Positions 21,263 through 54,348 of a stretch of DNA of 64,000 nt are shown here, one piece after another. The DNA comes from a virus. Lineage: Duplodnaviria > Heunggongvirae > Uroviricota > Caudoviricetes. Below the pieces are notes generated by a model. It saw only the letters and a program-made list of their open reading frames with translations. It ran no database searches and was not told where the DNA came from. Positions within the stretch are counted from its first letter, which is position 1. Every line of letters begins with the position of its first letter. The stretch is from the IMG/VR virus record IMGVR_UViG_3300023371_000083. The stretch is one strand, 5' to 3'. The translations under genes and the position numbers were made by a program.

Positions 21263-21817
21263 ATGAGGGAAGTTTATAAAGTTAAAAAAGGTGACATTGT
21301 TCGACTGGTAAAAGCAAATACATTTGATTATGTGGAACATCCTTATATTGCACATTTTATCAATAAAAATTTTGAAGTCGTTGATGTAAATAAATATAGA
21401 ATTACTGTGCTAAGAGATAACACAAAAATCGAATGTTATGCCGAATATTTTTATGATTATTTTAAAGTAGTAAAACCTGCAAAAGTAAAAGAAGAAACCG
21501 AAACAAATAAAAAGCAAACCAAAGTATCCAACGAGAAACCCGTTGAAAAGAAAACAGAAAATAAAAAATGGACTGATTGGACAACAATTAAAATTTTCGG
21601 TGAGGATTATGCATATAAAACTGATGGTAAAACAGTTATTCTGCGTAATGGTGGTTGTAAGGGTGTAAGCAAATGCCATGATGAGGATGAATTTAATTTA
21701 ACAAAAGGTCTTGAAATTGCATTTAATAGGCTGGTAGCTATGAGAACAGAAAAAGCCATTAATGATGCAAGGGCGGATCTTGATAAAAAAGTAAAAGTAA
21801 AGAAGAGAACTGTATGA
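21263..21817 (+). CDS. hypothetical protein
   Basis: ORF with RBS AAGGAGG. This is the last TAG-free gene before the recoded block begins. Confidence 0.4.
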   Translation: MREVYKVKKGDIVRLVKANTFDYVEHPYIAHFINKNFEVVDVNKYRITVLRDNTKIECYAEYFYDYFKVVKPAKVKEETETNKKQTKVSNEKPVEKKTENKKWTDWTTIKIFGEDYAYKTDGKTVILRNGGCKGVSKCHDEDEFNLTKGLEIAFNRLVAMRTEKAINDARADLDKKVKVKKRTV

Positions 21818-22071
21818 GAAAAAACTTTACATGCTTAAATTGTTTTTCAGAATTTGATGATTGGGCGGAAGTCGTCGAGTCTCATGGCTTCGATACTCCG
21901 CCATATGAAACACAATAGGTTTGCCCATAGTGTCACGATAATAATATTGTTACAGCTGTATATTGTGATTTATGCTTACAGCCTATTCATGGCAAATACA
22001 TTGTCACAGTTGATGGTGATACAATTTGTGACAACTGTTTTGTAAAAAGGGATGTGGAAGATCTAATATGA
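21814..22071 (+). CDS. zinc-ribbon protein with two in-frame TAG codons (21916, 21928)
   Basis: ATG overlaps the previous TGA. CLNC...CP[TAG]C...CDLC...CDNC reads as a contiguous 4x CxxC protein only if TAG is translated. Ends with a TGA that overlaps the next ATG. Confidence 0.45.
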
Positions 22072-22643
22072 AAAATACATTGGTTGTAAATTTAGTTGGT
22101 GGACAAGGTTCTGGGAAATCTACAATGATGGCTCATTTATTTGCATAGTTAAAATGGAATAATATTGACTGTGAAATGTGCAGCGAATTTGCAAAGGAGC
22201 TTGTTTGGGAAAATCGACAAGAAACATTTAAAGATGAGCTTTATATCTTTGCAAAACAGAATCATAGATTATTTAGATGTAACGGAAAAGTAGATGTAAT
22301 TATCACCGATAGACCTTTAATCATGTCTATTGCGTATAACCGGTACTATGGAGACCAAACGGATTATTTTTGGAATGCAGCATACGAAAGTATTGTTTAT
22401 GAAACATTTAACAAATAGAAAAACCTCAACATTTTTTTGAATAGAGTAAAACCTTTTAATCCAAATGGAAGAAACGAAAATGAAGAGGATGCTAAAAAAT
22501 TTGATGAATATTTTAAAGCCTCTCTTGAAGACCTTCGGCTTCCGTACCATGAATTTGATGGTGATTCCAACAGCGTTGAGGAAATAGGCGAGATGATTAT
22601 TGGGTTAATAAAGAGAGGTGAAACAAATGATTCAGAACATTAA
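22068..22643 (+). CDS. P-loop deoxynucleoside/nucleotide kinase-like protein with in-frame TAGs (22146, 22416)
   Basis: Walker A GGQGSGKST, followed by TAG, then ORF 22176 (DRP motif) and ORF 22437, all in one frame. Final stop is TAA. Confidence 0.55.
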
Positions 22644-22768
22644 TTCATTAGAAAATAATGCTAAGTACATTTATATTGGCAACAATAAATTTGTGAAAAT
22701 CTAGTTTGATCGACAAATGGCTGAAAAACTCGCAAATGGCATTAAGGAGATTAAAGTTAATGCCGGAT
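22627..22768 (+). CDS. small ORF with in-frame TAG (overlaps end of previous gene)
   Basis: RBS AGAGAGGTGA + ATG; 43 codons; TAG at 22702. Confidence 0.2.
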
Positions 22769-22782
22769 AAGGGGTTGATTGA

Positions 22783-23259
22783 ATGAATAAAAAAATTATT
22801 TATTGTTTTATAGCCTTTACATTTGTATTAACTTATACAGTATATGGTTGGTCTAAAAGCAATAAAGAAAACCTAGAAGAAATAGATAGGTTAAGTGCTA
22901 TGGTGGCGATTCAGCAAGAAAAAATTGATGAGTTGGAAAAAGAATTAAATATCACAACAGAAAAAAAGCCACAGAAAAAACATTTAGGTAAGTTTGAATT
23001 ATCTTTTTATTCTAAGGAGCAGTTTCCAAATTCTCCGACTGCAACAGGTGTAATGCCAGTTGTTGGAAGAACAATTGCTGTTGATCCATCTGTGATTCCA
23101 TAGGGGACAGCAGTTGAAATTGATGGATTTGGTATTAGATATGCCGAAGATACTGGCGGGGCGATTAAAGGCAATAAAATTGATGTATTTGTACAGACAA
23201 CTGCAGAGGCTCGTCAGCTTGGCAGAAAATTTAATGTTGATGTATGGACAGTTGAATAA
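22783..23259 (+). CDS. membrane-anchored 3D-domain (MltA/YuiC-like) cell-wall protein with in-frame TAG at 23101
   Basis: IAVDPSVIP[TAG]GTAVEIDGFGIRYAEDTGGAIKGNKIDVFV matches the 3D-domain consensus across the TAG. Confidence 0.65.
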
Positions 23260-23279
23260 CAGAAAGGAAGAGCAACAGT

Positions 23280-24008
23280 ATGGGAAAGGTTTAGATTCAT
23301 CCATTTACAACAAAAAAACCAATCACAATGATTGGATATATGGCTGGTGTGTGTTATGGAACAGATGTATCTGACGATGAAAAGAATTACAAAAGAGGTA
23401 TTGATTGTCTAAAATCGCAGCATGGCAGAACATGGGAATTTCCAACAGTATAGATGACGATTGAAGGGTACTCTGCAAGAGTTATGAGAGAAATTTATAC
23501 TCATATTGGTGGATCTCCTTCTCGTCTGCAAGCAAGTACAAGATATATTAATTACTCTGATTTTGACTATTTTACCCCTCCTTCTATTGAAGCTAATCCA
23601 GTAGCAAAAATTATTTATGATTCAACAATTATGAATAATATTATGGCTGGATTAAACGAACTAGAAGAAATGGGTATCCCTAAAGAAGATTCTGCTAATG
23701 CACTACCTCTTGGTATGGAATCTGTTATGGTCGGCAAATATAATTTTAGAACGCTGGCGGATATGTCACATCAAAGAAAATGTGTAAGAGCGTACCATGA
23801 ATTCAGAGGATGGTTTAATGATTTAGAAAATTCTTTATCTGAATATTCTGAAGAGTGGGCATATCTTGTAAAAGAACATTTTATGCCTAAATGTGAACAT
23901 CTGTTACATTGTCCAGAAAGATTTTCTTGTGGTAAATATCCTCCTAAAAATGTTGTTATGGAACTGATTGCACAGTGGAAAAAACAACAGGAGGCAAAAT
24001 CAGAATGA
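23280..24008 (+). CDS. thyX: FAD-dependent thymidylate synthase ThyX with in-frame TAGs (23292, 23451)
   Basis: AGVCYGTD...QHGRTWEFPTV[TAG]MTIEGYSAR...THIGGSPSRLQASTRY matches ThyX blocks. RBS AAAGGAAGAG. Confidence 0.65.
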
Positions 24009-24526
24009 AAAAATCATTAATTTTACTTGTCGGAAAATCTGGTTCCGGTAAAACGACAATCGCAGAATAGCTTGAAAAGAATTATGGACTAACAATGCTT
24101 GAATCATATACAACAAGGCAACCCAGGTACGAGGGTGAAAGAGGACATATTTTTGTTACAAAAGAGGAATTTGAAAAAATGCCTAACAAAGTGGCGCACA
24201 CATTTTTTGATGGAAATGATTATTGGGCAACACAAGAACAATGTGATGAATCAGATGTCTATGTGATCGATCCTGATGGCATCAAAACATTTAAAAGAAT
24301 TTATAATAGCCCAAGACCATACAAAATTGTTTATTTAAAAATAAGTCCGATTGTTAGATTTTGGCGAATGACAAAACGTGGTGATGGCGTAATGAAATCA
24401 ATTAGACGTATTATGCATGACCATAAGAAATTTGGAAAATTTGAAAATGAGTTTGGCGTAAAAATTATTAAAAGAGACCCTGTTTGGAGCATTGCCAAAC
24501 AAATTCATGAAATGAGGTCATTATGA
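24005..24526 (+). CDS. guanylate kinase-like P-loop kinase with in-frame TAG at 24068
   Basis: LVGKSGSGKTTIAE[TAG]LEKNYGL...LESYTTRQPRYEGERGHIF: a guanylate-kinase-like P-loop plus the S-TTR-PR-GE-G motif. RBS GGAGG. Confidence 0.6.
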
Positions 24527-24978
24527 TGAAATATTCTACAGTTGTGTAGATTTCACATCCATATGGCGGATTAAAGGAAAACGAGGATATTGTGGCTGAG
24601 TTAATTATTGAACTCAGTCGCAAATTCCCGGAGTATTTATTTATCTCGCCAATCCACGCTTTTTCTTTCACATACAAAACAGAAAAGAAATATCAAGACG
24701 GTCTTGATAAATGTTTATGGTTGTTAGATCAGTGTGATGAAATGTGGGTTTTTGGCAAATATAGAGAAAGCATTGGATGTATGGCTGAAATCGAATATTG
24801 TAATGAGCATCATATTTATTATCAAGCAATCAATGACAATTGTTTAAAAATCATGGCAGAACCAAGAAAGTGCTGTGATTGTGGATTGATGGAAATAGAT
24901 GAGCAATATGCAATTTGCAATAAAAGTTTTGTAAGTCAGATTTATGAAAAGGTTTGTGGTAAACATGGACAAGAATAA
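24523..24978 (+). CDS. hypothetical protein (nucleoside 2-deoxyribosyltransferase-like/DUF4406-like?) with TAG at 24547
   Basis: ATG overlaps the previous TGA. The frame is continuous through the TAG into ORF 24592. Confidence 0.35.
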
Positions 24979-25129
24979 AAAATTATTGCTTGAGTTGATT
25001 TGTGATAGACAGATTGCATTATTATTACAAGACAGTACAAATTATGAATCTGCAAAATATAAGCAATTAGAGAAACTGAAAGTATATGTCAAAGATATTA
25101 AGGAGGGTGTTGCTATTGAAGGTAATTAA
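24944..25129 (+). CDS. hypothetical small protein
   Basis: ORF track; its 3' end overlaps the nrdD start. Confidence 0.3.
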   Translation: MKRFVVNMDKNKKLLLELICDRQIALLLQDSTNYESAKYKQLEKLKVYVKDIKEGVAIEGN

Positions 25130-27356
25130 AAGAAACGGTACAGAAATGTAGTTTGATTCAAATAAGATTAAAATAGCGATTTTAAAAGCATTTGTTGATG
25201 TAGATGGTGAAGAAAGCCAGTATGCAAAAGACAAGGCGAGAGATATTGCTAATTATATCGCATCTTTAAATAAAACAATGTCTGTAGAAGAAATCCAAAA
25301 TATCGTTGAAGAAAAACTGATGGCTAGCAATAGAAAAGATGTAGCCAGAGCATATGTTCGATACAGATAGATGAGAGATATGGCAAGATCCCAGTACGAT
25401 GGTTTTATGCAAGCCATTAGGGAAAAGGTTGAAGCTTCAAATGTTCAAAATCAAAACGCCAATGTAGATGAACATTCTTTTGGTGGCAGAACCGGCGAGG
25501 CAACAGACACAATGATGAAAAAGTATGCTCTTGACTATTGTGTGTCAAAAATGGCTAGAGACAACCATCTGAATAATATTATTTACATTCATGATCTGAA
25601 TTCTTATGCCGTAGGCATGCATAACTGCCTGTCAGTACCTTTAGATGATTTGCTGAAAAATGGGTTTAACACAAGACAGACTGATGTACGTCCTGCAAAT
25701 TCTGTTAATACAGCATTTCAGCTTGTAGCAGTGTTATTCCAGTTGCAATCACTAATGCAGTTTGGCGGCGTGTCCGCTACCCATATTGACCATACAATGG
25801 TTCCTTATGTGAGAAAGAGTTTTTATAAACATCTAATGGATGGTTTTAAGTATATTGAGGGCGTAGCAGAGCCTAGAAAATATATGTATCAAGAAAACGC
25901 TGATGAATTTTGGACTCAATACACTGATATTGATGACAAGGATTTAAAAGCAGCGCATCCTAAAGCATACCAATACGCAATGGATATGACGACAAAAGAG
26001 ACATATCAGGCAGTTGAAGGTATGTAGCATAACCTCAATACACTGCAGAGTAGATCTGGTAATCAGCTTCCATTTAGTTCTGTGAATTACGGCACGTGTA
26101 CTCTACCAGAAGGCAGAATGGTAACAAAAGCGTTGTTAGAAGTATCAATCAATGGTATCGGCAAACTACATAGAACGTCTGTGTTCCCTTGTGGTATTTT
26201 CCAGTGTATGAAAGGCGTAAATAGAAAACCTGGCGATCCTAACTACGATTTGTTCCAATTGGCATTAAAATCTACAGCACAGAGACTGTATCCCAATTAT
26301 GCCAATGTGGATTGGAGTAATAACGCAGGATACGATATTAATGACCCTAGAACATATTTTAGTACAATGGGTTGTCGTACAGCCAACCTGTTCGACATTA
26401 ATGGCTTAGGTCAGCTTAAAGATGGTAGAGGCAACATCTGTCCTGTAACAATCATTATGCCTACATTGGCTATGATGGCAAAAGAACTGTACGAAGACCA
26501 GACTTACGATACACATGCTAATATTGTAGATATTTTCTTATACATTCTCGACCAAAAAATTCATGAGGCAAAAGATATGCTTATTGAACGATTTGAGTGG
26601 ATTTGTAAACAGAATCCAAAATCTGCAAAATTCATGTATGAAAATAATCTAATGGCTGGTTATGTTCCAGAAGAAGGAATTAGAAGCGCTTTAAAACATG
26701 GCACCCTAGCTTTAGGTCAGTTAGGTCTTGCGGAAACACTGCAGATTCTAATTGGTTGTGACCATACAACAAAAGAAGGTATGGATTTGGCAAAACAGAT
26801 TGAGCAGTTATTCAAAGATAGATGTGCTGAGTTCAAACAAGAATATCAACTGAATTTTGGTGTTTATTATTCTCCAGCAGAAAATCTTTGTCATACAGCA
26901 ATGAGAAAATTCCAAGAACAATATGGCGTGATTGAAAAAGTATCTGATAAAGATTATTTTACAAACTCTATGCATATTCCTGTATGGCATAAAATGACAC
27001 CATTTGAAAAGATTGATTTAGAAGCGCAGTTAACAGGATACTCTAGTGCTGGATGTATTACATATGTAGAACTTGAATCTTCAGTAAAACATAACATCGA
27101 GGCACTTGAAACACTTGTTAATTATGCAATGGATCAGGATATTCCTTATTTTGCAATTAATGTTCCCAATGATACATGTTTAGATTGTGGTTATTGCGAT
27201 GAAATTAATGATGTTTGCCCCATGTGCGGAAGCAAAAGAATTCAGCGTTTACGTAGAGTAACTGGTTATTTAACAAATGATTACAAAACAGCATTTAATT
27301 ATGGCAAACAACAAGAAGTTGAAATGAGAGAAAAGCATAGTGGGGTATCCGTATGA
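25116..27356 (+). CDS. nrdD: anaerobic ribonucleoside-triphosphate reductase NrdD (class III) with three in-frame TAGs (25149, 25368, 26025)
   Basis: ATP-cone VIKRNGTEM[TAG]FDSNKIKI...AYVRYR[TAG]...; core ...EGM[TAG]HNLNTLQSRSGNQLPFSSVNYG; C-terminal Zn ribbon and glycyl-radical RVTGYL motif. TTG start follows RBS AGGAGG. Confidence 0.8.
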
Positions 27357-27898: not shown

Positions 27899-27929
27899 CA
27901 TCCTGCTCTCTATTAAAAGAGGTAGTCTT

Positions 27930-28547
27930 ATGGGAAAAGAATTGAGTTTAAGAAATTAGAATCTTGTTATCGGAGTGATGCTCCTTTGGGGTTTTATTGT
28001 AAATGTATTTACATGTGCATTTGGTGGAGAATATTTTGCTTCAATTAGTCCAGTGAAATTATTAATAGGGTATTTTATTACAGCCATTATTGGTATTTGT
28101 ATGAGCGCATTTTCAGAAAATCCGTTTGTAAGTTTCATTGGTTATAACTTGGTTGTATTACCTATCGGCGCTGTATTAAGTGTTACATTACAAGATGTTG
28201 CAAAACTAACAATCCTTATGGCGTTTGGTGCAACTGCGTGCATGACATGCTTAATGATGATAGCAGCAACATTGAAACCGCAATTGTTTTTATCAATGGG
28301 TAGAATTCTGTTTATGAGTTTGCTTTTTGTAATTATAATTGAGCTTCTAATGGTCGTGTTTTGCGGTGTATCTCCAACAATAATTGACTTTGTTGTGATT
28401 GCTTTGTTCTGTTTATATGTAGGATATGATTGGGCAAAGGCGCAAGAGATGCCAAAAACATTGGATAATGCGGTAGATAGTGTTGTTGGACTGTATTTGG
28501 ATATTGTAAATATTTTTATCAGACTCATTGATATTATGGAAGATTAA
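27930..28547 (+). CDS. BI-1/YccA-family (TMBIM) membrane protein with TAG at 27957
   Basis: Seven-TM-like hydrophobic profile. C-terminal GYDWAKAQEM...GLYLDIVNIFIRLI matches the Bax-inhibitor/YccA family. Confidence 0.5.
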
Positions 28548-28559
28548 GGAGTGCCTTGC

Positions 28560-28805
28560 ATGATAAACAAAAAAACTTGGGAAGAATTTAGAGATTCTGG
28601 AATGTTATGGTAGATCAATATGATTCTGCATATCTTTGGATGGTCAATTGTAGTTGAATTAGAAGATAAAAAAATAATAAATGCATATCCGGCAAGGGTA
28701 AAATTTAGGGGATTTTCCGAAGAGAATAATACAGAAGGATATAGAAAAGTAAGCAAATATATGTATGAAAACATTAATGAGATTTTAGAAGAAGCAGAAA
28801 ACTAA
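28560..28805 (+). CDS. hypothetical protein with TAG at 28611
   Basis: RBS AAGGAG + ATG at 28560, in frame with ORF 28620. Confidence 0.35.
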
Positions 28806-28816
28806 GGATTGATTAA

Positions 28817-30108: not shown

Positions 30109-30816
30109 ATGAGTCGAATATTTGTGACGGGCGATACACACGGAGATTTTTTCCATATATAGAATTTCTGTCTTGATAATAATACTAGCATAGACGACAT
30201 TATGATTGTTTGTGGCGATGCTTGCATAAATTTTTATCTTGATAAAAGAGATGACAGACTTAAAGAAAGAATAGCTGGAATACCAATAACATTTCTAATT
30301 GTGCATGGAAACCATGAAGAACGAGCTTGGAATGTTAAGGGTTATAAACTGAAAGAACATAAAATTGGAACAGATAATTATGTGTATGGATATAGCGAAG
30401 AAAAATATCCAAATATAATTTTTGTTCAAGATTTTCATATTGAAACATTGAACGGAAAAAGATTTATGTTCCTTGGTGGTGCTTATTCTGTAGATAAATT
30501 CTATAGATTAGCAATGAACTGGTACTGGTTTGAATCTGAGCAAATGCCAGAAGAGGAAATGCTAGAGGTCTTAAAATTTGTCACAAGCGTAAGTAATTTC
30601 GATTATGTTGTGTCACATACATGTCCGTATAAATATATTCCAACAGAGGCGTTTTTGCCATCGATTAACCAGAATACAGTTGATCAGAGTACAGAATATT
30701 TCTTAGATGAAGTTGATGATTTAATTCAATACAAACAATGGTATTGTGGGCATTGGCATATCAAAAAAGAAATTCAAAAATTAAAATTCTTATTTGACGA
30801 TATTATTGAAATTTAA
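30109..30816 (+). CDS. calcineurin-like metallophosphoesterase with TAG at 30160
   Basis: VTGDTHGDFFHI[TAG]...CGDA...VHGNHEE phosphoesterase motifs. RBS AAGAGGTGA. Confidence 0.55.
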
Positions 30817-31191: not shown

Positions 31192-31195
31192 AAAT

Positions 31196-31393
31196 ATGGT
31201 TACGTTTTTAGGATTCATGGCTATCGCTAGTGGCATTGTTTTGAGGGCATAGCTCACAATCGATCATCATTGTTCTGACAGAGACAAACTAGAACTTAAA
31301 GACATTGCAGGTTATATGGTAATCGCAGGTGTCGCTATCATCTTAATTAATACATGGATTGCAAAGCCAGTGATAATTTGGTTGGGAGGTTAA
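31196..31393 (+). CDS. small membrane protein with TAG at 31250
   Basis: RBS AAGGGGTGA; two hydrophobic segments flank the TAG. Confidence 0.3.
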
Positions 31394-38101: not shown

Positions 38102-38428
38102 TTAACCCTGTTCAATAATGTCTGTTTTTAACTCGGCATCTGTATTAGAAATATCAATACGAAGTTCTGTGACAGCACGTTTAATATAAGCTTTAACTTC
38201 TTTTTCATCAAAAGTGATTTTATATTTATTCAGAAATTCCACCATTGCATCCCAAACCTACTGTGCTTTATCTTCTATTTCGCCAGTGATATGTAACTCA
38301 TTCGCTGCAGAAACCAGTGTTTTTGCAACTTTTAAAATTACTGTTCCTTTCAGCATAGGAATCCAATATTTCTTACTAAAGAATACAATACAAATAATTA
38401 ATAATTCAAAAATCCATGTAATATCCAT
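38102..38428 (-). CDS. holin-like small membrane protein with in-frame TAG at 38258
   Basis: RBS AAGGAGG; N-terminal TM; 108 codons ending TAA. Immediately upstream of the endolysin. Confidence 0.45.
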
Positions 38429-38788: not shown

Positions 38789-38802
38789 GTTTCACCACCT
38801 CA

Positions 38803-39378
38803 TTCTTCAAATTCATCAACTACAGACCATGTATAAATTTCTGGCTGAACAATGTTTTGAACAAAACTATTGCCATTGACCGCAAACTATTCTTCAACCA
38901 ATCCTTCCAAAGCATCCAGCTCCATAGCTGTAATCTTTTTAGTTTTATGATGCAAACGATATGCTCTCATTATTTTATCTTTTAATTCTGCACGAATTCT
39001 TTTTTGATTGCGTTCTTCACTTTCTGCAAAACGCTGGTCTGTTTTTCTTTGATTTTCTTGCATCATCCTAGACAATTCTGTAAGCTGTGTGGCTAATTGA
39101 GTATTAGCATCAATAAGTTGTTTTTGAATTTCAAATGATTGCTCACGGTCATGTTTACGATTATCTTCATATGCACAAATTCTGTCATGATCCGATAACA
39201 ACATATTCAGTAACTCATCTTTCCGTTTTCTCGTCTGATACCAAGAATCCCAAAGACCTTTGATATCTTTTCTGTTTGATAAAAACCACCCAATCACAAC
39301 TCCTAAAATAATCAAACTAACAAGAAGAGTAGAAGAGGGGATTCTATCTATATAATCAATTAATTCGGTAAGTGTCAT
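38803..39378 (-). CDS. membrane-anchored coiled-coil protein; ORF-track stop at 38887 is TAG with a 28-codon in-frame extension to TGA
   Basis: Direct read of the extension ...LVEE[TAG]FAVNGNSFVQNIVQPEIYTWSVVDEFEE*. Confidence 0.35.
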
Positions 39379-40267: not shown

Positions 40268-40915
40268 TTAAAACTCCTCTTTAATCCTTACAATATCGTC
40301 TAGTTCAATTGTAGAACTTTCAATAATGACTAAATCTGTAATGGCTTTTACTTGATGAATTGTGCCAGCCGGAATTCTGATAGTGTCACCAATATTTATA
40401 CGAAACTCTTTTCCGTCTACTTTGGCAATCCCAACACCTTCAACAACATGCCATGTCTCATGTTTTTTAACATGATATTGTAGAGATATATTTAATCCTG
40501 CATCAATATGCAATCTTTTCATTGCATAGTTTTTAGTGATGTCCAGTAAATACTCTTTACCCCAACGCTTGTTGATTACAGTTAAACTTTCGGCATCATC
40601 TTTAGATATCAAATAATTTGCATTACAACCCTTATCATCTATGTAAACATCTGCAGCGGGTTTGCCAAATCTCAGTTCATGCTATTTTACACCCCAATCA
40701 GATAATTGTTGCGTTGTAAGATCGAACCAATCAATTCCAGTTTCTGTGCCACGAGCAGTATAATAAACCACTTTATTTCCGTTATCATACAAAGTGTTTG
40801 CCATTTGTATCATATCCATATATGGTTTTGCGTCCGCATAATTTTCTTCTTGACTACAGATAGTTCCATCAATATCAAAAATGTACTTTAGAGGTTTCGT
40901 ATTTGAATTTTGCAT
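40268..40915 (-). CDS. HAD-IIIA phosphatase (KdsC/nonulosonate-9-P phosphatase-like) fused to a C-terminal cupin domain; in-frame TAG at 40682
   Basis: FDIDGTI (motif I) ... YYTAR ... [TAG]HELRFGKPAADVYIDDK (motifs III/IV) span the TAG, followed by a small cupin beta-barrel. RBS AAGGAGG before M19. Confidence 0.6.
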
Positions 40916-42359: not shown

Positions 42360-43055
42360 TTATTCAAATCCTTTTATCCATTGATTAAATGCTGTTTCAT
42401 CGTTAATATATTTACTAGGTGTAACATCTTGATAATTATAAAAATTTTCAGATAATTGACGTTGATAATTCATGGTTGCATTTATCAATTCACCTACATA
42501 CTAAGTTGTATATTGTATAGTATATTTATCTACTAACAAACACCCTATATTTTTAGGCGGGATATAATTCACTACAGAATCAAGATATAAATAGCGATAT
42601 GATAATGGCGAAGATAATTTTAAAGATTGATAATAATCCATAAGATTCTATACACAGTCATTAGATATGATACATAAAACTTTATAGTCAGGAGATAATT
42701 CGCCATCATCCATTAAAAACCTTAAAGCAGCAACACGATGTCTACCTTCATACACATAAAAACATCCTTTATTTTCTATAGGGTAAACACAAAGAGGGAA
42801 GTACATTCCTTTAGATAGTATCTCTTCACCAAAAGCTTTTTGCTTTTCTTTATATTTTTTTATAAACGGATTATCAATATTTTGGCTCCATATATCTTTG
42901 TCATTGTCAAGAGGGTCTGGAAATAAATATTGGATACTTATAAACTTGAAATCTAATATATTGCTGCGTATAAGGGGGCGTAAGGCATAATATATATAAT
43001 CCGAATGATATATTTTAGAAAATTGCTCTACAGAACAATTAATTCTAGTCAACAA
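42360..43055 (-). CDS. ParB/sulfiredoxin-like nuclease-domain protein; 135-aa ORF-track part ends in TAG (42648) and continues in frame through a second TAG (42501) to TAA at 42360
   Basis: YEGRHRVAALR ParB motif. The extension has no RBS of its own and ends exactly at the next gene's start. Confidence 0.45.
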
Positions 43056-43557: not shown

Positions 43558-43604
43558 AATTCATGATACCTCCTTTAATAATATATACGATAAGAACTAT
43601 TACT

Positions 43605-44474
43605 CTATAGTTTCACAATATAAGGTATACCATCCACAGTTCTAATACATCCTTGACTAACTAAATAATTATAAAGATAGTAGTCATTCTGTGTCCATAG
43701 TTCAGTTCTATCTAATCTAGGAGCTGGATTTAATTCTGCAGCATCTCCGTAACCATAAGACTTCAAAGAATTTGCTATATATAACTCTGTAGTTACAGTT
43801 CTTTTGAAACCCATAATTCTGCAACGAACATTCTGTATATCGAAGTCAGCTCCACTCGATGGCGTACCATAAGTGTTTACTATCATCGCAAGCTTGAAAG
43901 TTTGACCCGCATAACTGTTACCAAGCCCATAATTAGTATATATTTTATCATATGTTTTTGAAGTACCGGCGGCTATATTACTCAAACTTTCCAATGAAAA
44001 CATAGGGGAAAAATTCCCAGCACTATCTACTGTACCAGCATGAAATCTGAGAACTCCAGGGTTACTTCCTACATGAGTGTACTTACAGTCAACTCTTATT
44101 CCGCAAGTATCTGCAAGTATTTGAATGTCACCCAATACGACATATCCAGTATCTTGATTACATCTTGTGGCGGTAGATAAAAAATTAAATGTCTGACTTG
44201 CAGTTTTCACCAAATAATCATCAGCTCTCTTTAGTGGAGCAACATTTGCAGATATATTATTAATTAAAGTGTTTGCAGCCTCTACTTTAGTTTTTACAGT
44301 TGCCAAATCATTTTTAACACTAGATATATCATTTTTAACTCCAGATACATCAGTTCTCACATTAGACACATCAGTTTTAACTCCTGATACATTTGTGTTA
44401 ACTTCTTGTAATGTAGTTTGTTTCGCCATATCCATACTAGGATCTAAATCAAACTCATTTATTTTAGAAGACAT
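43605..44474 (-). CDS. tail fiber-like protein with N-terminal heptad (T-D-V-S-x-V-K/R) repeats
   Basis: Six or more heptads VSGVKTDVSNVRTDVSGVKNDISSVKNDLATVKTKV, then a beta-rich C-terminal domain. Confidence 0.5.
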   Translation of the reverse strand: MSSKINEFDLDPSMDMAKQTTLQEVNTNVSGVKTDVSNVRTDVSGVKNDISSVKNDLATVKTKVEAANTLINNISANVAPLKRADDYLVKTASQTFNFLSTATRCNQDTGYVVLGDIQILADTCGIRVDCKYTHVGSNPGVLRFHAGTVDSAGNFSPMFSLESLSNIAAGTSKTYDKIYTNYGLGNSYAGQTFKLAMIVNTYGTPSSGADFDIQNVRCRIMGFKRTVTTELYIANSLKSYGYGDAAELNPAPRLDRTELWTQNDYYLYNYLVSQGCIRTVDGIPYIVKL

Positions 44475-46952: not shown

Positions 46953-46964
46953 GTTCTCACCGCC

Positions 46965-48302
46965 TTATTCGTACACCAGATGGATACAACCGTTGGCAAG
47001 GGCAGAGCCTGCACCGATATCTGTTGTGCCTTTGGTGATGTTGTGTTCACCGTAGATGTTGTAACTTTTTGCACTTCCATCAATAACATCATATAAAAAC
47101 ATAGAATTTTCTAACTAACCAGAAGCGTGATTGGTCAGAACCAAAGAACGTCTGTTATTATTATCGAATTTTACATCATATGCAACGGCATAAGTCTGTC
47201 CATTGTAACTACCGAACAAACCTAAACCATCAGATACAAATAAATCCCCGCCTCTCAGCGTTCCGCCTTCGGTTGTAAAGATTTCTTTCCAACCTGTCCA
47301 TGTAATATTACCATTTGCTGTGTAGTGTTCAGCGAACCATCTTCTGCTAGTGTTTGCCGCTTCTAATGTTAAAGATGTTCTGCTATCCATAGACTTATAA
47401 ATAATACAAGTTGCTGTTGTTGTGGGATATTGACTCGCATTATTGGAAGATGTAACATGAAACATTAACATTGAATTGTTCGGTAAAGACGCCATAATAC
47501 CATCAATTGTTTCTTCACCTACAGTAATACCAATCTGCTCAAGGGATGTGTATGTTTTTAAATTTGAATCCATCACTCTATCTAATGGCAAACTATCTTT
47601 TCTAATACTGCGACCAGACATATACTCTTCTGTTTCATTAGTTTCAATTTGTTTAAACACTTCCATTGTAATTGTTGTTCCAATAGAAACACCTTCAGTT
47701 AAAACAACTTTCATACCAGAAACCACAAAGTCAGAATTTTTATGTAATACCAGTTGACCTTGATATACTTTTAATACATCAATTGCATCATCAAATGTAT
47801 CAAAGGGAACAATAAATTCTCTTTGTCCATCTTCTACTGCAACTAAAGTATCAATCATATATACCATTTTGCCATTAATGGGAATTTTATTAATTTCATT
47901 ATCAACATACTCTTTGGTAGTTACAGTTTCTGCTAATCTATCTAATGGCATTGTGCCAACGCCAATATTAACACCAGATAATGCTGATTCTTCATCTGCA
48001 CTAACTACGGCTTTAAACACAATGATATCAATTGTTCTGCCCGCAGGAACACCTTCAAGCAAAATAACTTTTGTACCATCGATAATCTAATCATCTACAG
48101 CAGATAATTTCATACGACCTGAAAAAACCATAACTGTGTCTTTTGAGTAGTCAAATGTCTGCATTGGAATTATAAATTCTGTTTGACCATTGAATTCTGC
48201 GGTGTGTCGAAAATCGTATTTTACTAAGTTACCACTGGTAGCAAGAATTTGTTTTTTAATTTTTTGAATCTCAACGAGATTCTTAAAAGCATCAATACTC
48301 AC
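46965..48302 (-). CDS. tail fiber-like protein with tandem about 60-aa repeats and in-frame TAGs at 47115 and 48087
   Basis: The repeat ...GQLVLHKNSDFVVSGMKVVLTEG aligns with ...GRMKLSAVDD[TAG]IIDGTKVILLEG across the TAG. RBS AAAGGAGGT. Confidence 0.5.
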
Positions 48303-48334
48303 ATTAACTTACCTCCTTTATAAATAAAAAAGAC

Positions 48335-49558: not shown

Positions 49559-49560
49559 CT

Positions 49561-49597
49561 CCTTTATATAAAAATACCCAGCAGTTTTTTCTGCTGG
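49561..49597 (-). terminator. intra-operon rho-independent terminator (CCCAGCAG-A6-CTGCTGGG + T-run) after the Tal/RBP gene
   Basis: Direct read on the minus strand. Confidence 0.45.
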
Positions 49598-49609
49598 GAT
49601 GTATTAATA

Positions 49610-51500
49610 TTAAATAGTCGCAAATTTACCAGTGCCATTATTATAATAATATCGTTGTTCAACACGATCATATAAACAAGCAATACCACGATAATCAATC
49701 ATTGGTAAATAATCTCTAATTAAAATGTCATTATCATATATTTTACAAGAATATAGTCTGCCAACAAATCCATGACCATCACCACCATCAGGTTGATTGT
49801 CTCTAAACAATCGTAATTCACATGTTGCATCAAATGGGATGTATTGATGTTCTCCGATAACAATATTGTCAAAACTAATTTGATTTTTATTAGCATCCAC
49901 AATATGCCGCCCAATCATATTATATTGGAATGTGATATCTGATTGTTCGCCATAAGATGATAGCATTGAATGTGGTGCTATATTTACATTTTGAGAATAT
50001 ATACAGAACGCTTGTCTGCATTCATTATTTCGTGATGAAAATAATGTATAATAGCCAATAGCGTCTTGTTGTAAAATTTCATAGTTAAATACAACTCGAG
50101 TATTTTCGTCTGGTACAAATCCAGTATTGATATATTGATTACCATCACACGTTAAATAATTTACTGGAATCGAATCAGATTGGTTTGAATAAAAACTTCC
50201 TGTGCCTTGATTATAATAATACTGTTTTGTTACACAATCATATAAACAAACAATTCCATTTCCATCTTGAGCAGGAATATAATCTCTTACAAGGGTACTA
50301 TTATGGTCATAAATTGCCATATTGTATAATTTTGCTGGTAAAAACTCACCAGCACGACCATTATTATTTAGTGCAAAAATATAAAGTGGATTTGCAGTTC
50401 TTACGCCAGTATCATTAGTGCCAGTTTGACCAGAACATATTATATTATTATTGATAATTAATGTAATATTATTTGCAAATGTTTGTAGTGCAATACAATA
50501 TTTCGTATCAATAGTTTCGCCATTAGATGGTATATTTAAATATCCGCCATCGCCAAGTCCAAATTGATATAAATAGTTATACTGATTGTATTGATAAGGA
50601 AATCCCCAAAAGAACTGTTGTCCAAATTGCTCTGCATCTCTTGCACCAACAATCATACCTTGATATAGGCTAGGGTATTCAATATTTAACCTTGCCATAT
50701 ACCCATTTGGAACGGAAAGGTTAGTATTAATATATTGTGTTCCAGTTGAACCAATATATTTTAATGATTGCATACCAATTGGCGCTGCAACAAACTTTCC
50801 AGATCCTTGGTTATAGTAATATTTTTGTTCAACACGGTCATACACACAAGCAACATCATTTTCATCTAATGCTGGAATGAAATCACGAATTAAGACATTT
50901 TTATTATATAGTTTACAACCAAAAAATCTGATTTTTGAAAACTCGTTAACAGAACCATTATCATTGTCTGCAAAAATAACAATATTGTGTGGGCAAGTAA
51001 ATTGAGTTGCTGTGCTGGTAAAAGCAACAGTATCATTAAAATACACATTATTGTTATCTAAATTTAATGCAACATTATATCGTGTATTAACACCTGTATA
51101 ACATGCTGCAGCTGTAGGTTCTAGTTTGTTTGAACCACGGCAACAATAATATTTGCCATCATTACTAAATCCGACATACAATGCATTTTCATTATGTACA
51201 ACTCTAGAACCAAGAACCATATTATATTTGCTAATACATTCAATTGGTGTGAAATCAATGTTGTATGTAATATTTTCACTTGGTTTAACGCCAGTATCAA
51301 TCTATTGTTGACCAGTTGATTCGATAAATGCAATTTGTCTGACTTTTGCATCTTGGTATACAAATTGTCCGTTGCCTTTATTATAATGAAATTTTCTATT
51401 TACCTTGTCATATAAACATGGAATATTATTTATATCTAACACTGGAATAAAATCACGAACTAAAATATCATTATCATAAATTTGACAACCAAATAATCTC
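49610..51500 (-). repeat. four diverged tandem DNA/protein repeats (about 450-600 nt each) inside the Tal/RBP gene
   Basis: Nucleotide blocks near 49610-49680, 50180-50250, 50795-50860 and 51360-51425 are about 70% identical (...attataataatactgtt...catataaacaa...). Confidence 0.5.
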
Positions 51501-53449
51501 ATAGTAGAGAACAAACTAGCAGTACCATTCAAAACTTCTGCAAATAAAATTAGTGGTGCTACGCCATCAAATGTAACATATTCATGTGTAATTTTCTTAT
51601 CGTTGAATAAAACTACATTTTTGTTGTGGTCTACAATATGTCGATTATGTGGAACAGTATCAATAAAAATACCGGTATCATTATAAAAATTACTACGAAA
51701 TTGACCATTTGGATTTCTCCATAAGGCGAACTCATTTGTATGTGGAGATGAAGTACGAGATGAATAAACAGCACCCCAAGAACTAGGATCAACCGTATAT
51801 TGAAAATCTATTACAACTCTTGTATTAGAATTTGGAGTATACTCTGTATCAATATATTGACTGCCAGTAGACTCGATAAATGGTATCTCTTCATAAATAC
51901 CAATAATTTCATTTGTACTTAAACTATAATAAGGATAAAATTCTTCCATAGTAACATTCATTGTGCCATTTGGATGATCAGAAGAAATATTTTTAATAAT
52001 CCAATCTTTAATTTCGCCAGATTCACTATATTTAAATCTCACTTTTTCATTTCCTTGTAACCAAGGGATATACACCATATCTAAAGTAACTGTACAACCA
52101 ATACGAGATGATAAATATGTTTCATGTTCAGCTCTTGCGACACAATCATCTACAGCTTGAATATCATCGTACTCTCCGCCCTGAAATGATTTTAATCGTT
52201 CTCCAATTTTTTCAATCGCAAAAGGGGAATCTGGTGCTATTGTATATGAAATATGATCACAATGATGTTTTTTCACATCTGCTTTTTTTTCGTCAAGAGT
52301 AGGTTTTGTATTTCTTAATTTATTAACAGCCTGAATTTGCCATTGTCCTAAAGCATACATAGAATTTCTTCTGTATCTGAAAACAAAAGTAGAATTTGCA
52401 ACAAAGAAATTTGCTTCAATTGCTTCTTCTAGGCTATTTGTAATATTATATAAACCAACCAACACTTCTTCAGATGATTCGTCTTTTTTATTCTAAATCG
52501 CAATTTTTGATCCAGCGTTTGAATTAATGAATGGCATTTTAACTGCAAATTTTGTGCTTGTAGGTAAACTACCATCATCATTTAAAGCGAGTCCTTTGAA
52601 ATGTGCGGAGTATGTGTTTAAAGTAACATCATACTCACAAATTTCTGTATGATAATCTGTATCTAAGCATTTACCCCAAACCTTACTTACATTTCTAATG
52701 TCTTTCAAAACGCCATTATCAACTTCAGAAACATATAAATTTTGCAAAATATTGTTGTCTAAAACAATAGGATCGGACTCTTCCATAGGAATTTGTTTAC
52801 AAATAAATGTACCATCGGTATCAAAATACATTTCATAAGAAGGGTAAAGGTCTCTGAGTTTTGTTAAAATTGTCCACACAGTATCTGTCGCACTAAATTC
52901 TAAATCATAAGGAACAAGTTGTGGCATGTCTGCAATATTATATCTCGTAAAAGGAGAGAAGGTTGTTAATACATAAATCATTGCATCACGTACACTAACA
53001 TTTTCCTCAGCCTTAATTACAACCTCTAAATCTTCTAAACTGCCATCAACATCACCATTTAATTTACAGACCAAATCAGAGCAATTTACTTGTAGAATTC
53101 TTGTTTGTGGATTATAAGAATAATCTGTCATAACAAAAATACCTTTGTCATACCATAAAACATCCTCGTGAAAAGGTACTTGTACACCAAAGAAAATTTT
53201 TACATATTGATCAATCCAAAGCAATCTGTCTTCTGAAATGCCAACATTTTTATTGATAACACCTAATGTCATACTCAATGTATTTCTAATATCAGAATCA
53301 ACATTAGTTGAAATACTTCCAGATATATATTCATGCTTCATCTCATAAATTGTTTGAAATTTATCATTCAATAATAAAATCTTTACATGCAATATTTTTT
53401 GCGGAAATTTTAAAGCATCAATATCAATTTGGGTAGGGTAATAAGCCAT
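49610..53449 (-). CDS. giant tail-associated protein (Tal N-domain + tandem-repeat receptor-binding region, about 1280 codons) with in-frame TAGs at 52493 and 51302
   Basis: ORFs 52493..53449, 51302..52465 and 49610..51220 share one frame and are joined by TAGs. About 150-aa modules repeat four or more times (FIESTGSQYIDT...CLYDxVxxKYYYNxGxGxF). Confidence 0.55.
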
Positions 53450-54348
53450 TAATTACCCACCTCCAAAAATTCAACAAATCCATTATAATATAGATCTTCA
53501 TTACTATTTACATCGCCAACTTCAACGAAATTTACTGTTGTATGCACTAAGTCGGGATGACCATTTGTTGCTTCATTAATAGTATCAATTGCAGATGCTA
53601 GATAGATTCGACCATCATAGAATTTAACAATTTTAGTTCTTTGATTGTCAATGAAATCTCTAAACGCTTTTCTATATCTCCATCCATTATCGACATCCCA
53701 TTGACATGTATTTCTATTTAATTCAATCATAGCACCAGTCACAGAGAATTTATCATATCTTGACTGACCATAATAATAAACATAAGGGTATTTAGAATTC
53801 ACTGGTTCAATCATTGTAGATTTAATTTGTCTAGTCAGATTATCACTAGCGAAATCCAAAATTACTTGATATGTATTTGTTTTATCTACAATAAAGCAAC
53901 CATCAAATTCTACATCAACACTAATTGTTTGATAAGAACCTTCAACGCCATTAACAATAGGGACAGCAGCATACTCATATGTTGTATTTGATGCTACAAC
54001 CACATCATTAAAGAAGAAATCAAAGTCAGCTTCTGTTTTTACAGGGAATGTGTAAAGAGTAGACCATTTATAATCATCAACTTTTCTCTTTTTAATTACC
54101 ATGTCACTAATAGAAGCGAGTGTAAAACCAACATTACCAGCTAAAATATTGTTTTGGAATTTCGCATTCATTAATGTTGTATGACCCCATGTTGGAATAT
54201 TTGTGTCTGCCGGAGCAGAAACATCTGAATCCATCTACACTTCATCAAACACGGCATTAGTAATTTCTACATATTCCGTAGATTGTGGGGAAATAGGTGT
54301 TGCGTCTAAAGATGAGGCATAACTAACAAATCCTCCTAAAAACATCAT
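53449..54348 (-). CDS. siphovirus tail family protein (Dit-like) with in-frame TAG at 54235
   Basis: MMFLGGFVSYASS... runs in frame through the TAG into MDSDVS.... The ATGATG overlaps the upstream TGA. Confidence 0.45.

Follow-up and report, generated by a model that had tools for sequence, protein, structure and literature searches.

In-frame TAG codons in an SPbeta-like phage point to a two-code genome with TAG read as tyrosine in middle and late genes

Why do conserved genes of a tailed phage carry in-frame TAG codons, and which amino acid is inserted at these positions? The question is raised by a window of 64 kb (64,000 nucleotides, the whole stretch of DNA analysed), in which a preliminary description had reported TAG codons inside conserved domains of at least 25 genes between positions 21814 and 54348. 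The window is half of a ~129-kb phage genome that we rebuilt whole (~129.2 kb, circular or permuted, SPbeta-like, 33% GC); the reconstruction is near-complete, with an 816-bp gap unread within one ORF. Genes were called with TAA and TGA as the only stops, which gave 186 genes in the whole genome, 117 of them ending in TAA and 69 in TGA. The SPbeta-like markers YonJ_CC, YonG_N, YonD_N, and YonB were identified by Pfam, the serine integrase corresponds to PHROG 95, and we infer that a YonO-like ORF encodes an RNA polymerase. None of the GenBank phages exceeded ~26% TerL identity. The phage is probably temperate and associated with gut Firmicutes.

An early block that avoids TAG

The first third of the window is occupied by the following features.

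1..21817, + strand: early block, essentially without in-frame TAG, with no gene closed by TAG, and compatible with both codes
5708..6136, + strand: PTH2 peptidyl-tRNA hydrolase (Pfam PTH2, 82 bits), early and TAG-free
11845..12700, + strand: zinc-ribbon ORF and Sak-like annealing protein, carrying the ambiguous TAGs of the early block

The early block encodes an MrpR-like recombinase, a cysteine desulfurase-like protein, PTH2, RtcB, NadR, and PnuC, together with Sak, SSB, DnaB, a primase, an exonuclease, and PolIII-alpha. Its ambiguous TAGs lie close to the end of the small zinc-ribbon ORF (12073 and 12085) and at codon 4 of the Sak-like protein (12113); these could be genuine terminators, codons preceding the actual start, or sites of read-through. 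Genome-wide, the 78 in-frame TAGs are distributed very unevenly, with 8 in the 15,771 codons of early genes versus 70 in the 22,205 codons of middle and late genes (Fisher test; p = 1e-10). The 96 early genes contain 921 TAT/TAC codons besides these 8 TAGs, a TAG share of 0.9% of TAG+TAT+TAC versus 5.5-7.6% in middle and late genes. Out of frame, TAG density is alike in the three blocks (30.6, 33.7, and 35.0 per 1000 codons).

Genes interrupted by TAG

The TAG-bearing genes of the + strand begin where the early block ends.

21814..22071, + strand: small Cys-rich protein, the first recoded gene; TAGs at 21916 and 21928
22125..22643, + strand: AAA_28/dNMP-kinase-like protein; TAGs at 22146 and 22416
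22627..22770, + strand: 47-codon ORF of uncertain gene status; TAG at 22702
22783..23259, + strand: 3D-domain protein; TAG at 23101-23103 (VIP[TAG]GT); Pfam 3D at 96-157
23280..24008, + strand: ThyX; TAGs at 23292 and 23451; Pfam Thy1 at 11-182
24005..24526, + strand: guanylate-kinase-like protein; TAG at 24068; Pfam Guanylate_kin at 4-168
24523..24978, + strand: DUF7768/deoxyribosyltransferase-like protein, Pfam match below cutoff; TAG at 24547
25107..27356, + strand: NrdD anaerobic ribonucleotide reductase; TAGs at 25149, 25368, and 26025
27930..28547, + strand: Bax1-I membrane protein; TAG at 27957; Pfam Bax1-I at 16-203
28560..28805, + strand: 81-aa protein with a full-length match to PHROG 16397; TAG at 28611
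30109..30816, + strand: metallophosphatase; TAG at 30160; Pfam Metallophos at 3-218
31196..31393, + strand: small membrane protein; TAG at 31250

Those of the - strand include lysis and tail genes.

38102..38428, - strand: holin-like protein; TAG at 38258-38260
38800..39378, - strand: membrane/coiled-coil protein; TAG at 38887
40268..40915, - strand: HAD phosphatase-cupin fusion; TAG at 40682-40684
42360..43055, - strand: protein of unknown function with no family match; TAGs at 42648 and 42501
43575..44474, - strand: tail-fibre-region protein; TAG at 43605, ten codons ahead of TAA
45726..46952, - strand: glycine-rich tail-fibre-like protein (PHROG tail fiber assembly); TAGs at 46644 and 46380
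46965..48302, - strand: tail protein with two internal repeats; TAGs at 48087 and 47115
49610..53449, - strand: 1279-aa tail-associated/receptor-binding protein; TAGs at 52493 and 51302
53449..54348, - strand: protein in the Dit position; TAG at 54235; PHROG 27355 at residues 6-297
55524..55808, - strand: small tail-region protein, outside the interval first flagged; TAG at 55542, near its end

Of the 21 credible genes retained between 21814 and 54348, which together hold 30 in-frame TAGs, the + strand carries 12 (g35-g51, at 21.8-31.4 kb) and the - strand 9 (g64-g83, at 38.1-54.3 kb). Three dubious small ORFs (g58, g60, and g62) carry TAGs as well. The in-frame TAGs within conserved domains are real and many genes carry them, as first described; the original figure was a slight overcount.

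Pfam domains run uninterrupted across TAGs in the metallophosphatase, the guanylate kinase, the 3D protein, ThyX, and NrdD, all of which had been singled out previously. The ATP-cone (5-91) and NRDD (117-744) domains of NrdD both cross TAGs, and the solved NrdD structure 8p23 aligns with residues 3-746 of the phage protein. The AAA_28 match (17-147) spans the second TAG (22416) of the dNMP-kinase-like protein, for which the PHROG match is a thymidylate kinase, and the TAG of the Bax1-I protein is N-terminal to the domain. On the - strand, homologs of the HAD phosphatase are full length across the TAG at 40682, and the holin-like assignment comes from the PHROG match across the TAG (1.6e-13), the Pfam Phage_holin_6_1 match being under the cutoff (20.8 bits). 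The tail protein previously given as a 1280-codon Tal/RBP has 1279 codons, two TAGs, a PHROG tail protein match, and Pfam DUF5048. The sole match of the protein in the Dit position, PHROG 27355 (unknown function), also spans its TAG, while the Pfam Gly_rich_2 match of the glycine-rich protein is under the cutoff. Domains and full-length homologs extend over the TAGs, and the early replication block avoids TAG; stop-codon recoding or suppression, the reading proposed initially, is well supported.

Recoding does not stop with the flagged interval; structural genes past the end of the window are recoded too. It reaches its highest density close to the tRNA array, which lies on the recoded strand at its 5' end. 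Middle and late genes with about one to five TAGs each include those of nucleotide metabolism, lysis, tail, and head, homing endonucleases, and the YonO-like ORF. Some TAGs could still terminate translation: they are overrepresented near ORF ends, 11 of the 78, all within 12 codons of the end, could be true stops, and the one at 43605 might terminate its gene or have a dual use.

Could these codons be inactivating nonsense mutations in a decaying prophage, or assembly errors? Each is one step from TAT or TAC, which would fit. Nevertheless, only TAG is found and never TAA, which is equally one step away and favoured at 33% GC; no in-frame TAA or TGA interrupts the TAG-bearing genes, which contain no frameshifts. 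The TAG sites are identical among strains of 97-99.8% identity assembled independently (JGI, ENA, and Logan), which excludes sequencing error, the explanation that the preliminary description had left to be checked. Moreover, ~129.3-kb contigs recur in many samples and the early block is specifically spared. Decay or misassembly is thus extremely improbable.

The amino acid at TAG

Alignments with homologs indicate that TAG is translated as tyrosine in middle and late genes. The TAG column holds Y in 110 of 120 homologs of the HAD phosphatase (Q in none), in 116 of 120 for a YonJ-like phosphatase, in 31 of 32 at NrdD residue 307, and in 21 of 31 at NrdD residue 88, while residue 15 is variable. 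Three columns of the YonO-like ORF are invariant for Y (24/24, 24/24, and 25/25), whereas others, at 30% identity, hold I (24/24) or E (22/23). The 3D column is mixed among 149 homologs (L 90, Y 40, F 6, Q 0), with Y in all three of the closest ones (77, 67, and 65% identity). Y is also found at ThyX residue 58 (TAT in the three closest relatives) and in three relatives of the DUF7768-like protein; three relatives of the metallophosphatase have F. Variable columns with other residues show T (including ThyX residue 5), D/C (including the guanylate-kinase-like protein), or P/D/L. Within the 1279-aa tail protein, TAG 716 corresponds to Y in 3/3 paralogous modules (GxQ[TAG]IDT versus GxQYI(D/N)T), and TAG 72 of the two-repeat tail protein pairs with F in the paralogous repeat.

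Overall, Y is the majority residue at 18 of the 32 covered TAG sites, against a TAT/TAC background of ~4.5-5.5% (2,048 of ~38,000 codons), and the non-recoded sister phage L228 has Y at 14 of 16 TAG sites. TAG and TAT/TAC are exchanged reciprocally with the relatives L039, L087, L089, and L167. On these alignments, tyrosine is best described as having a third codon in TAG, which fills 5-15% of Tyr positions; termination falls to TAA and TGA, both recognised by RF2.

Glutamine, inserted through a Gln-type suppressor (code 15) as in crAss-like phages, Lak, and phAss-1, is the sole TAG reassignment reported for phages in the literature that we found (10.1101/2021.08.26.457843; PMC10607447; PMC9523058), and our literature search returned no report of TAG-to-Tyr in phages. 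The public ENA protein P0001, an automated annotation of this phage, already carries Gln at TAG, one NrdD site is Q in 7 of 31 homologs, and at variable residue 15 the closest one also carries Q. However, Q occurs in 0/32, 1/120 (P0001 itself), 0/120, and 0/149 homologs at conserved TAG columns, where Y dominates, and the only CUA tRNA of the clade is a class-II, Tyr-like one. In true code-15 relatives this pipeline does recover Q: for more distant phages (L116/L196 and the NrdD loci L004, L016, L031, and L033) it returned Q/K/E or invariant Q, showing that the method separates Tyr from Gln. A glutamine code is therefore highly improbable. The gene calls under translation table 15 that had been proposed as a check do restore ORF lengths, but place the wrong residue, Gln for Tyr, at every site.

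tRNAs and the putative decoder

A tRNA(CUA), the usual decoder, was not found in the ~129.2-kb genome by ARAGORN (introns allowed, relaxed thresholds), by a custom stem-loop scan, or by Rfam at the gathering cutoff and at E<=1. The tRNA-Tyr of the phage is a divergent class-II tRNA with a GUA anticodon, as is the type found in L087, and sits behind a terminator-like hairpin and an ultra-conserved leader of 65 nt (63/65 identical, versus 79% identity for the tRNAs themselves).

The sister lineage L039/L167 encodes a supF-like tRNA-Tyr(CUA). Its anticodon arm in L039, GCGGTCTCTAAAACCGT, is the tRNA-Tyr arm of L041 with a G34C change; the L039 tRNA is 61-65% identical to phage tRNA-Tyr genes and at most 43% to Leu/Ser tRNAs, and the L039/L167 tRNA is class II with A73 and G1-C72. 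These features mark it as a putative tyrosine-type suppressor, with predicted charging by tyrosine. No tRNA-Tyr(GUA) was found in L167, and no tRNA-Tyr at all in the non-recoded L228. Among accessory functions, the phage encodes an ArfA (27.9 bits, above the Pfam cutoff), whereas no gene for RF2, an RF1 inhibitor, or TyrRS was recognised. PTH2 is possibly an accessory to translation take-over.

ARAGORN labels the CUA tRNAs "Pyl." Pyrrolysine decoding finds no support: tRNA-Pyl and pylS/pylBCD are absent from the Pfam/PHROG annotations and TAG aligns with Tyr. More generally, the host itself might read TAG as Tyr or another residue such as pyrrolysine, with the phage following its code; the lack of a suppressor tRNA in the genome and the "Pyl" label would fit. 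This is very unlikely: avoidance of TAG in early genes would be pointless in such a host, no bacteria with amber reassignment are known (10.1101/2022.06.29.495998; PMC8629427 screen), and the L039 CUA tRNA derives from a class-II tRNA-Tyr, not from tRNA-Pyl, with TAG aligning with Tyr rather than Lys.

TAG could instead remain mostly a stop, with low-level read-through by near-cognate tRNA-Tyr attenuating or timing expression short of full reassignment. The genome lacks a cognate suppressor tRNA, and Tyr is the residue naturally inserted on UAG read-through; in yeast, 92% of insertions at UAG come from tRNA-Tyr(G-Psi-A), the chief natural suppressor (PMC4150775). Base +4 after TAG is skewed to A (34/78, versus 31% after TAT/TAC; p = 0.003), a skew that a role for sequence context would predict, and the enrichment of TAGs near ORF ends goes in the same direction. 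Yet a few per cent of read-through per TAG would give vanishing yields of major virion proteins, TerL, the portal, and the five-TAG YonO-like ORF; TAG swaps freely with TAT/TAC among relatives like a synonymous codon; and a sister phage has a dedicated tRNA-Tyr(CUA). Low-level read-through is thus an unlikely explanation.

Proposed model

We consider it very probable that this is a two-code phage, using the host standard code early and TAG as Tyr in middle and late genes, with a tyrosine-type tRNA as decoder. Early genes (recombinases, replication, and RNA repair) work under the standard code of the host. Middle and late expression would be gated by TAG translation, through a switch set by early functions; the same has been proposed for phages with TAG=Gln or TGA=Trp. 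The decoder would be of the tyrosine type, which in L039/L167 would be the phage-encoded supF-like tRNA-Tyr(CUA).

For the window phage, three sources of decoding can be put forward, tentatively and with about equal weight. The tRNA-Tyr(GUA) might read UAG by G34-G wobble, with RF1 neutralised or outcompeted; stalled ribosomes would then be cleared by the phage ArfA (RF2-dependent rescue) and PTH2. A tRNA-Tyr(CUA) might come in trans from the host or from a relative residing in the same cell. Or a non-canonical or post-transcriptionally altered phage tRNA might have escaped ARAGORN, Rfam, and the custom scan.

The usual inefficiency of G-G reading speaks against wobble decoding, as do the five TAGs of one ORF, which would have to be decoded efficiently.

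A natural UAG=Tyr code operating free of a cognate CUA tRNA, combining disabled or outcompeted RF1, a regulated and wobbling tRNA-Tyr(GUA), and cleanup by ArfA/RF2 and PTH2, seems rather unlikely. If true, it would offer a living example of the "ambiguous-intermediate" stage in codon reassignment, the L039/L167 lineage having fixed the next step, tRNA-Tyr(CUA), next to a non-recoded relative devoid of tRNA-Tyr.

Implications

The existence of a TAG=Tyr lineage would mean that co-option is open to other synthetase/tRNA pairs as well. When table 15 is selected on coding density, annotation pipelines silently put Gln at Tyr sites, and this error is carried into protein families, predicted structures, and metaproteomic searches, which it corrupts. 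The suppressor-less recoded genome, the sister with a CUA tRNA, and the non-recoded relative form a natural series on stop-codon capture, which bears on the long-standing question of ambiguous intermediates in code evolution. Genetic-code engineering in Firmicutes might find tools in the tRNA-Tyr variants and in any early factor that neutralises RF1.

Comparison with known systems

The classical Tyr-inserting amber suppressor supF is an E. coli tRNA-Tyr with a CUA anticodon made by a single G34C change. The L039/L167 tRNA has the same change, but is natural, phage-borne, and used genome-wide rather than a laboratory allele; the window phage, in contrast, has the GUA form only. Near-cognate read-through by tRNA-Tyr (G-Psi-A/QUA), described for TMV, yeast, and RF1-deficient E. 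coli, likewise places Tyr at UAG independently of a cognate suppressor, and would explain why the lineage ended with Tyr. In RF1-less E. coli, both Gln and Tyr are inserted at UAG (PMC6207430). These cases are low-efficiency leaks or engineered strains, whereas here ~70 codons in essential genes are concerned.

The closest parallels are the recoded gut phages (crAss-like, Lak, and phAss-1 with code 15; Jade, Agate, and Topaz with code 4), which also have in-frame stops in conserved genes, large genomes, similarly placed tRNA arrays, and a gut origin. In those phages the recoded stop does not terminate genes; here all called genes end in TAA or TGA, but the 11 near-end TAGs could be true stops. 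They share the TAG-free early genes and recoded late, structural, and lysis genes, a layout of dual-coded early and recoded late blocks described for recoded phages (bioRxiv 10.1101/2021.08.26.457843; 10.1101/2022.06.29.495998). The window phage differs from them in using Tyr instead of Gln, in having no CUA tRNA, RF2, or aaRS gene, and in recoding the nucleotide-metabolism "middle" genes too. A suppressor tRNA with matching anticodon is found in just 35-75% of reported recoded phages. Where the phage code departs from that of the host, Borges et al. saw two reassignments only, TAG=Gln and TGA=Trp; judging from the codon alignments, TAG=Tyr would extend the known phage codes beyond this largest survey that we found.

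The phage resembles Bacillus phage SPbeta in its Yon markers, large serine integrase, PolIII-alpha-type polymerase, and ~130-kb genome. SPbeta uses the standard code. Among structurally related phages, some have TAG=Gln, the window clade has Tyr, and at least the close sister L228 is non-recoded, which suggests more than one origin of recoding.

TAG codons within conserved genes of the window

The window has a GC content of 33%, and its genes switch strand, together with GC skew, at 34.4 to 34.7 kb. ORFs were called with TAA and TGA as the sole stops, giving the following layout.

Layout of the window
Position 1 to 21.8 kb, + strand: continuous replication and RNA-repair block (MrpR-like recombinase, cysteine-desulfurase-like protein, PTH2, RtcB, NadR, PnuC, Sak, SSB, DnaB, primase, exonuclease, PolIII-alpha), in-frame TAG essentially none
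21.8 to ~34.4 kb, + strand: middle genes, in-frame TAG frequent
~34.4-34.7 kb: strand junction, large serine integrase
From ~34.7 kb, - strand: remaining genes, in-frame TAG frequent

The preliminary description had counted at least 25 TAG-containing genes between 21814 and 54348. This was slightly high, as we find 30 TAGs in 21 credible genes in that interval, and its label of one gene as Dit was not confirmed. The in-frame TAGs themselves are confirmed by Pfam domains that span them (NRDD 117-744, ATP-cone 5-91, Thy1 11-182, 3D 96-157, Guanylate_kin 4-168, and Metallophos 3-218) and by the read-through NrdD product, which aligns end to end with the solved NrdD structure 8p23; the interpretation as recoding is thereby supported. 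A PDB search with ThyX gave nothing useful.

In the otherwise TAG-free early block, three TAGs lie at 12073-12115: a zinc-ribbon ORF has two at its end, and a Sak-like gene has the third as its codon 4. They may be stops, read-through sites, or positions 5' of the true start. This block is also abundant in RNA and cofactor genes, including the cysteine-desulfurase-like gene, RtcB ligase, NadR and PnuC, RlaP nucleotidyltransferase, and a Thg1-like gene (window 1614-2738, 6171-7385, and 8159-9986; fetched locus L083 3188-4216 and 5548-6417), a set that suggests a tRNA-repair or modification toolkit.

Distribution of TAG across the whole genome

The genome was extended past the window by exact-match and exact-protein look-ups, and the pieces were joined into 128,376 bp, with one 816-bp gap left inside a 795-aa ORF. 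The total agrees with several independent contigs of ~129.3 kb opened at different points, which implies a circular or circularly permuted genome. Samples that contain the phage include JGI 3300022660, 3300024269, 3300024272, and 3300031555 and ENA ERZ27248436 and ERZ28633344. Judged by its Pfam markers (YonJ_CC, YonG_N, YonD_N, and YonB), the phage is SPbeta-like. Among the GenBank phage records searched, no close relative of the clade turned up: megablast of 25 kb gave no match and tblastn with TerL gave nothing above 26% identity. An IMG/VR search with the tail protein returned no relatives, and a metagenome scan with the YonJ-like protein, which missed the phage's own contig, returned only relatives of ≤62% identity, whose tRNA arrays are large and lack a CUA tRNA. 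The host search in GTDB genomes likewise gave relatives of ≤61% identity only, some in Clostridia MAGs or genomes and others in MAGs labelled with the unlikely taxa Muribaculaceae, Treponema, and Odoribacter, the latter probably being mis-binned phage contigs.

Genome-wide, 186 genes end in TAA (117) or TGA (69) and contain 78 in-frame TAGs versus 2,048 TAT/TAC codons.

TAG usage by genome block: number of genes; TAG as a share of TAG+TAT+TAC; out-of-frame TAG per 1000 codons
Early block: 96; 0.9%; 30.6
Middle (+ strand): 21; 7.6%; 33.7
Leftward (- strand): 69; 5.5%; 35.0

In-frame TAG differs strongly between the early and the remaining genes (Fisher P = 1e-10). Since out-of-frame TAG density is equal across the blocks to within these values, the early depletion reflects selection on the reading frame rather than base composition. 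TAG density reaches its maximum, 10-15%, in the first operon of the leftward strand, where a YonO-like ORF with five TAGs and a ClpP-like gene occur together with homing endonucleases located within the tRNA array. The GIY-YIG and HNH endonuclease genes among the tRNAs show the highest densities, with 3-5 TAGs each (strain locus L077 392-970 and 4688-5221; window-equivalent 89333-90885). Eleven TAGs are so close to the ORF end (last 12 codons) that they could be real stops or serve both uses. Of four features of recoded phages, two are found in this genome, namely in-frame copies of one stop codon inside intact conserved genes and their concentration outside the early genes. For a third, non-use of the recoded stop for termination, all 186 ORFs close with TAA or TGA, these 11 TAGs being possible exceptions. 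The fourth, a suppressor tRNA, was not found.

The amino acid encoded by TAG

Alignment columns of homologs indicate that TAG very probably encodes tyrosine in this phage, rather than the glutamine that had been assumed. In a first sample of NrdD relatives from IMG/VR, several had in-frame TAGs facing an invariant glutamine, the classical code 15, and two TAG columns of the window NrdD held tyrosine in 23/23 and 15/23 relatives. Further columns are listed below.

Residues found in homologs at TAG sites of the window phage
NrdD residue 307: Y 31/32
NrdD residue 88: Y 21/31
YonJ-like phosphatase, ID[TAG]IVAGH: Y 116/120, the lone Q being the phage's own ENA translation
HAD, VK[TAG]HEL: Y 110/120, Q 0
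YonO-like ORF, three sites: Y 24/24, 24/24, and 25/25
3D domain: L 90, Y 40, Q 0; Y in the three closest homologs
Tail protein, paralogous modules: Y 3/3
Tail repeat, gene 46965-48302: F

Homologs covered 32 sites, where the predominant residue was tyrosine at 18 and TAG itself at 2. In recoded relatives with 60-87% protein identity (L039/L167, L087, and L089), TAGs exchange reciprocally: theirs face tyrosines of the window phage and its own face their tyrosines, the subject codons opposite TAG being TAT or TAC. Such an exchange is the pattern expected for synonymous codons. The non-recoded sister phage L228 (66% amino acid identity) has tyrosine at 14 of 16 TAG sites of the window phage. As a control, TAGs in L116 and L196, which share the structural module but are more distantly related, face Q, K, and E; the column method thus distinguishes Gln-type from Tyr-type recoding.

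Some sites do not fit, as two TAGs of the YonO-like ORF fall in columns where homologs at 30% identity conserve I and E, and several others lie in variable columns. Leucine, raised by the excess of L over Y in the 3D-domain column, was rejected because other conserved columns are specific for tyrosine. Genetic code 15, one of the codes with which the preliminary description had proposed to re-call the genes, therefore does not describe this phage, its TAG columns being of the Tyr type. That code has already left a mark in databases: the public ENA protein P0001 of this phage (locus L077 5552-6736) carries glutamine at the TAG (IDQIVAGH) where 116/120 homologs have tyrosine, and this is a mistranslation by code-15 default.

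In another NrdD relative (L006 10001-12203), five in-frame TAA codons in the last ~20 codons face N, K, N, Y/L/K, and K; these could result from a frameshift or a different recoding.

The tRNA array and the search for a suppressor

The recoded strand carries 13-14 tRNA genes as an array at its 5' end, where suppressor tRNAs of recoded phages are usually located (10.1101/2022.06.29.495998). No tRNA with a CUA anticodon was found in the genome pieces by ARAGORN (introns allowed; relaxed, 85% threshold), by Rfam (gathering and E ≤ 1), or by a custom scan for a CUA stem-loop and T-loop. The array includes a class II tRNA-Tyr(GUA) (L080 12849-12932 of the same genome, G34 at 12884), which the Rfam tRNA model misses even at E ≤ 1; its stem changes relative to the orthologue in L087 are compensatory, which argues that it is structurally constrained.

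Tyr-type tRNAs in four phages of the clade
Window phage: recoded, TAG=Tyr; tRNA-Tyr(GUA)
L087: recoded, TAG=Tyr; tRNA-Tyr(GUA)
L039/L167: recoded, TAG=Tyr; CUA tRNA, GUA form absent
L228: not recoded; no Tyr-type tRNA

In these four phages, the presence of a Tyr-type tRNA tracks TAG=Tyr recoding. The CUA tRNA of L039 belongs to class II and has G1-C72 and A73. Its anticodon arm matches the arm of a phage tRNA-Tyr apart from G34C, and its identity to phage tRNA-Tyr genes is 61-65%, versus ≤43% to Leu and Ser tRNAs. It resembles supF, a Tyr-derived amber suppressor. The sister L228 (Logan SRR33013277_21865) has a complete tRNA array devoid of tRNA-Tyr and a single in-frame TAG, aligned with one of the window phage. 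More broadly, 120 loci retrieved as IMG/VR matches to CGGTCTCTAAAACCG (L108-L227) carried 113 tRNAs with a CUA anticodon, of which 44 have long variable arms. Several have G73 and clearly resemble tRNA-Ser (L175, L173, L157, and L169), and, from these tRNA genes, other amber identities such as serine may occur in phages now called code 15.

The tRNA-Tyr(GUA) is preceded by a terminator-like hairpin, and the 65 nt directly 5' of it are identical at 63/65 positions between the window phage and L087 (L080 12784-12848, L087 1737-1801), the tRNAs themselves being 79% identical. This leader folds as a long hairpin with a 15-nt loop. None of the other fetched loci contained it, and its sole match in IMG/VR was the phage's own contig; a promoter scan did not flag it, and the sequences are too few for covariation as a structured RNA. 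Two independent contigs stop inside the tRNA-Tyr anticodon loop (L081 12849-12905, L082 12849-12886), and L081 then runs into 14 nt that match, in reverse complement, a stretch ~125 nt upstream. An inverted segment, a heterogeneous population, or an artefact of assembly could account for these breaks.

Hidden suppressors were sought in two other places. The tRNA-Thr(UGU) gene, intact in strain L077 (4118-4190), carries a 478-bp insertion in the window strain (L038 548-1026), which encodes a PD-(D/E)XK (PDDEXK_5) protein with an in-frame TAG and may be an intron or homing element. Maturation of the interrupted gene into a CUA tRNA was rejected, since no consistent fold was obtained and L077, devoid of the insertion, keeps its TAGs. 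Two matches to YrlA-like Y RNA, with tRNA-like fragments, lie after a TROVE/Ro60-like gene (L080 10001-11632, 11902-12006, and 12050-12176; E = 2e-3 and 1e-4, under Rfam gathering). These fragments were assigned to YrlA-like Y RNA rather than hidden tRNAs, and the locus looks like a phage Ro/Y-RNA module within the tRNA array.

Possible decoding routes and accessory genes

Three ways of decoding UAG in the window phage were weighed together, with roughly equal weight: near-cognate reading by tRNA-Tyr(GUA) with RF1 neutralised, a CUA tRNA provided in trans, and a phage tRNA that is edited or went undetected. Near-cognate reading is conceivable because natural UAG suppression in yeast is due mainly to tRNA-Tyr, with 92% of insertions through G-G wobble (PMC4150775), and because Escherichia coli devoid of RF1 inserts Gln and Tyr at UAG, its stalls being resolved via tmRNA, ArfA, and ArfB (PMC6207430). 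The phage carries an ArfA homologue, a 48-aa ORF with the core motif VKNKKGKGSYKRKEKH that passes the Pfam cutoff of 25.5 bits with a score of 27.9. It is flanked by tRNA-Leu(UAG) and the YonJ-like gene (L080 14148-14291 in the same genome, ~21 kb past the window end). ArfA acts via RF2, the release factor of TAA and TGA, and these RF2 codons close all 186 called genes of the window phage. A phage-borne RF2-dependent ribosome-rescue factor is unusual. The genome also encodes PTH2; genes for RF2, an RF1 inhibitor, or TyrRS were not recognised in it.

The YonO-like ORF (735-828 aa; window-equivalent 93331-95541; L086 5209-7695) occupies the position of SPbeta YonO, a single-subunit RNA polymerase. 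Its putative assignment comes only from this synteny and an SDHDGD motif, as Pfam gave no match, PDB nothing useful, and PHROG only matches of unknown function. Were it the late polymerase, transcription of late genes would also need TAG decoding.

Comparison with known recoded phages

Lak phages and TGA=Trp clades are among the known recoded phages. For TAG, glutamine was confirmed by proteomics in crAss-like phages (PMC9523058), and phAss-1 carries three Sup-CTA tRNAs (PMC10607447). Mgcod models codes 4 and 15 and a hypothetical TAA=Tyr only (10.1101/2022.06.29.495998), and a 2026 survey of jumbo phages used codes 15, 90, and 91, picked by coding density (PMC13037316). Full-text searches of the literature, in a collection that omits most subscription-journal papers, gave no description of a phage with TAG=Tyr. 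Tyrosine at TAG would contradict the generalisation of Borges et al. that phages differing from their host's code show only TAG=Gln and TGA=Trp, and would expose a systematic annotation error. The clade would also provide a natural three-step series for stop-codon capture, from no tRNA-Tyr and no recoding, through recoding with tRNA-Tyr(GUA), to recoding with a tRNA-Tyr(CUA).
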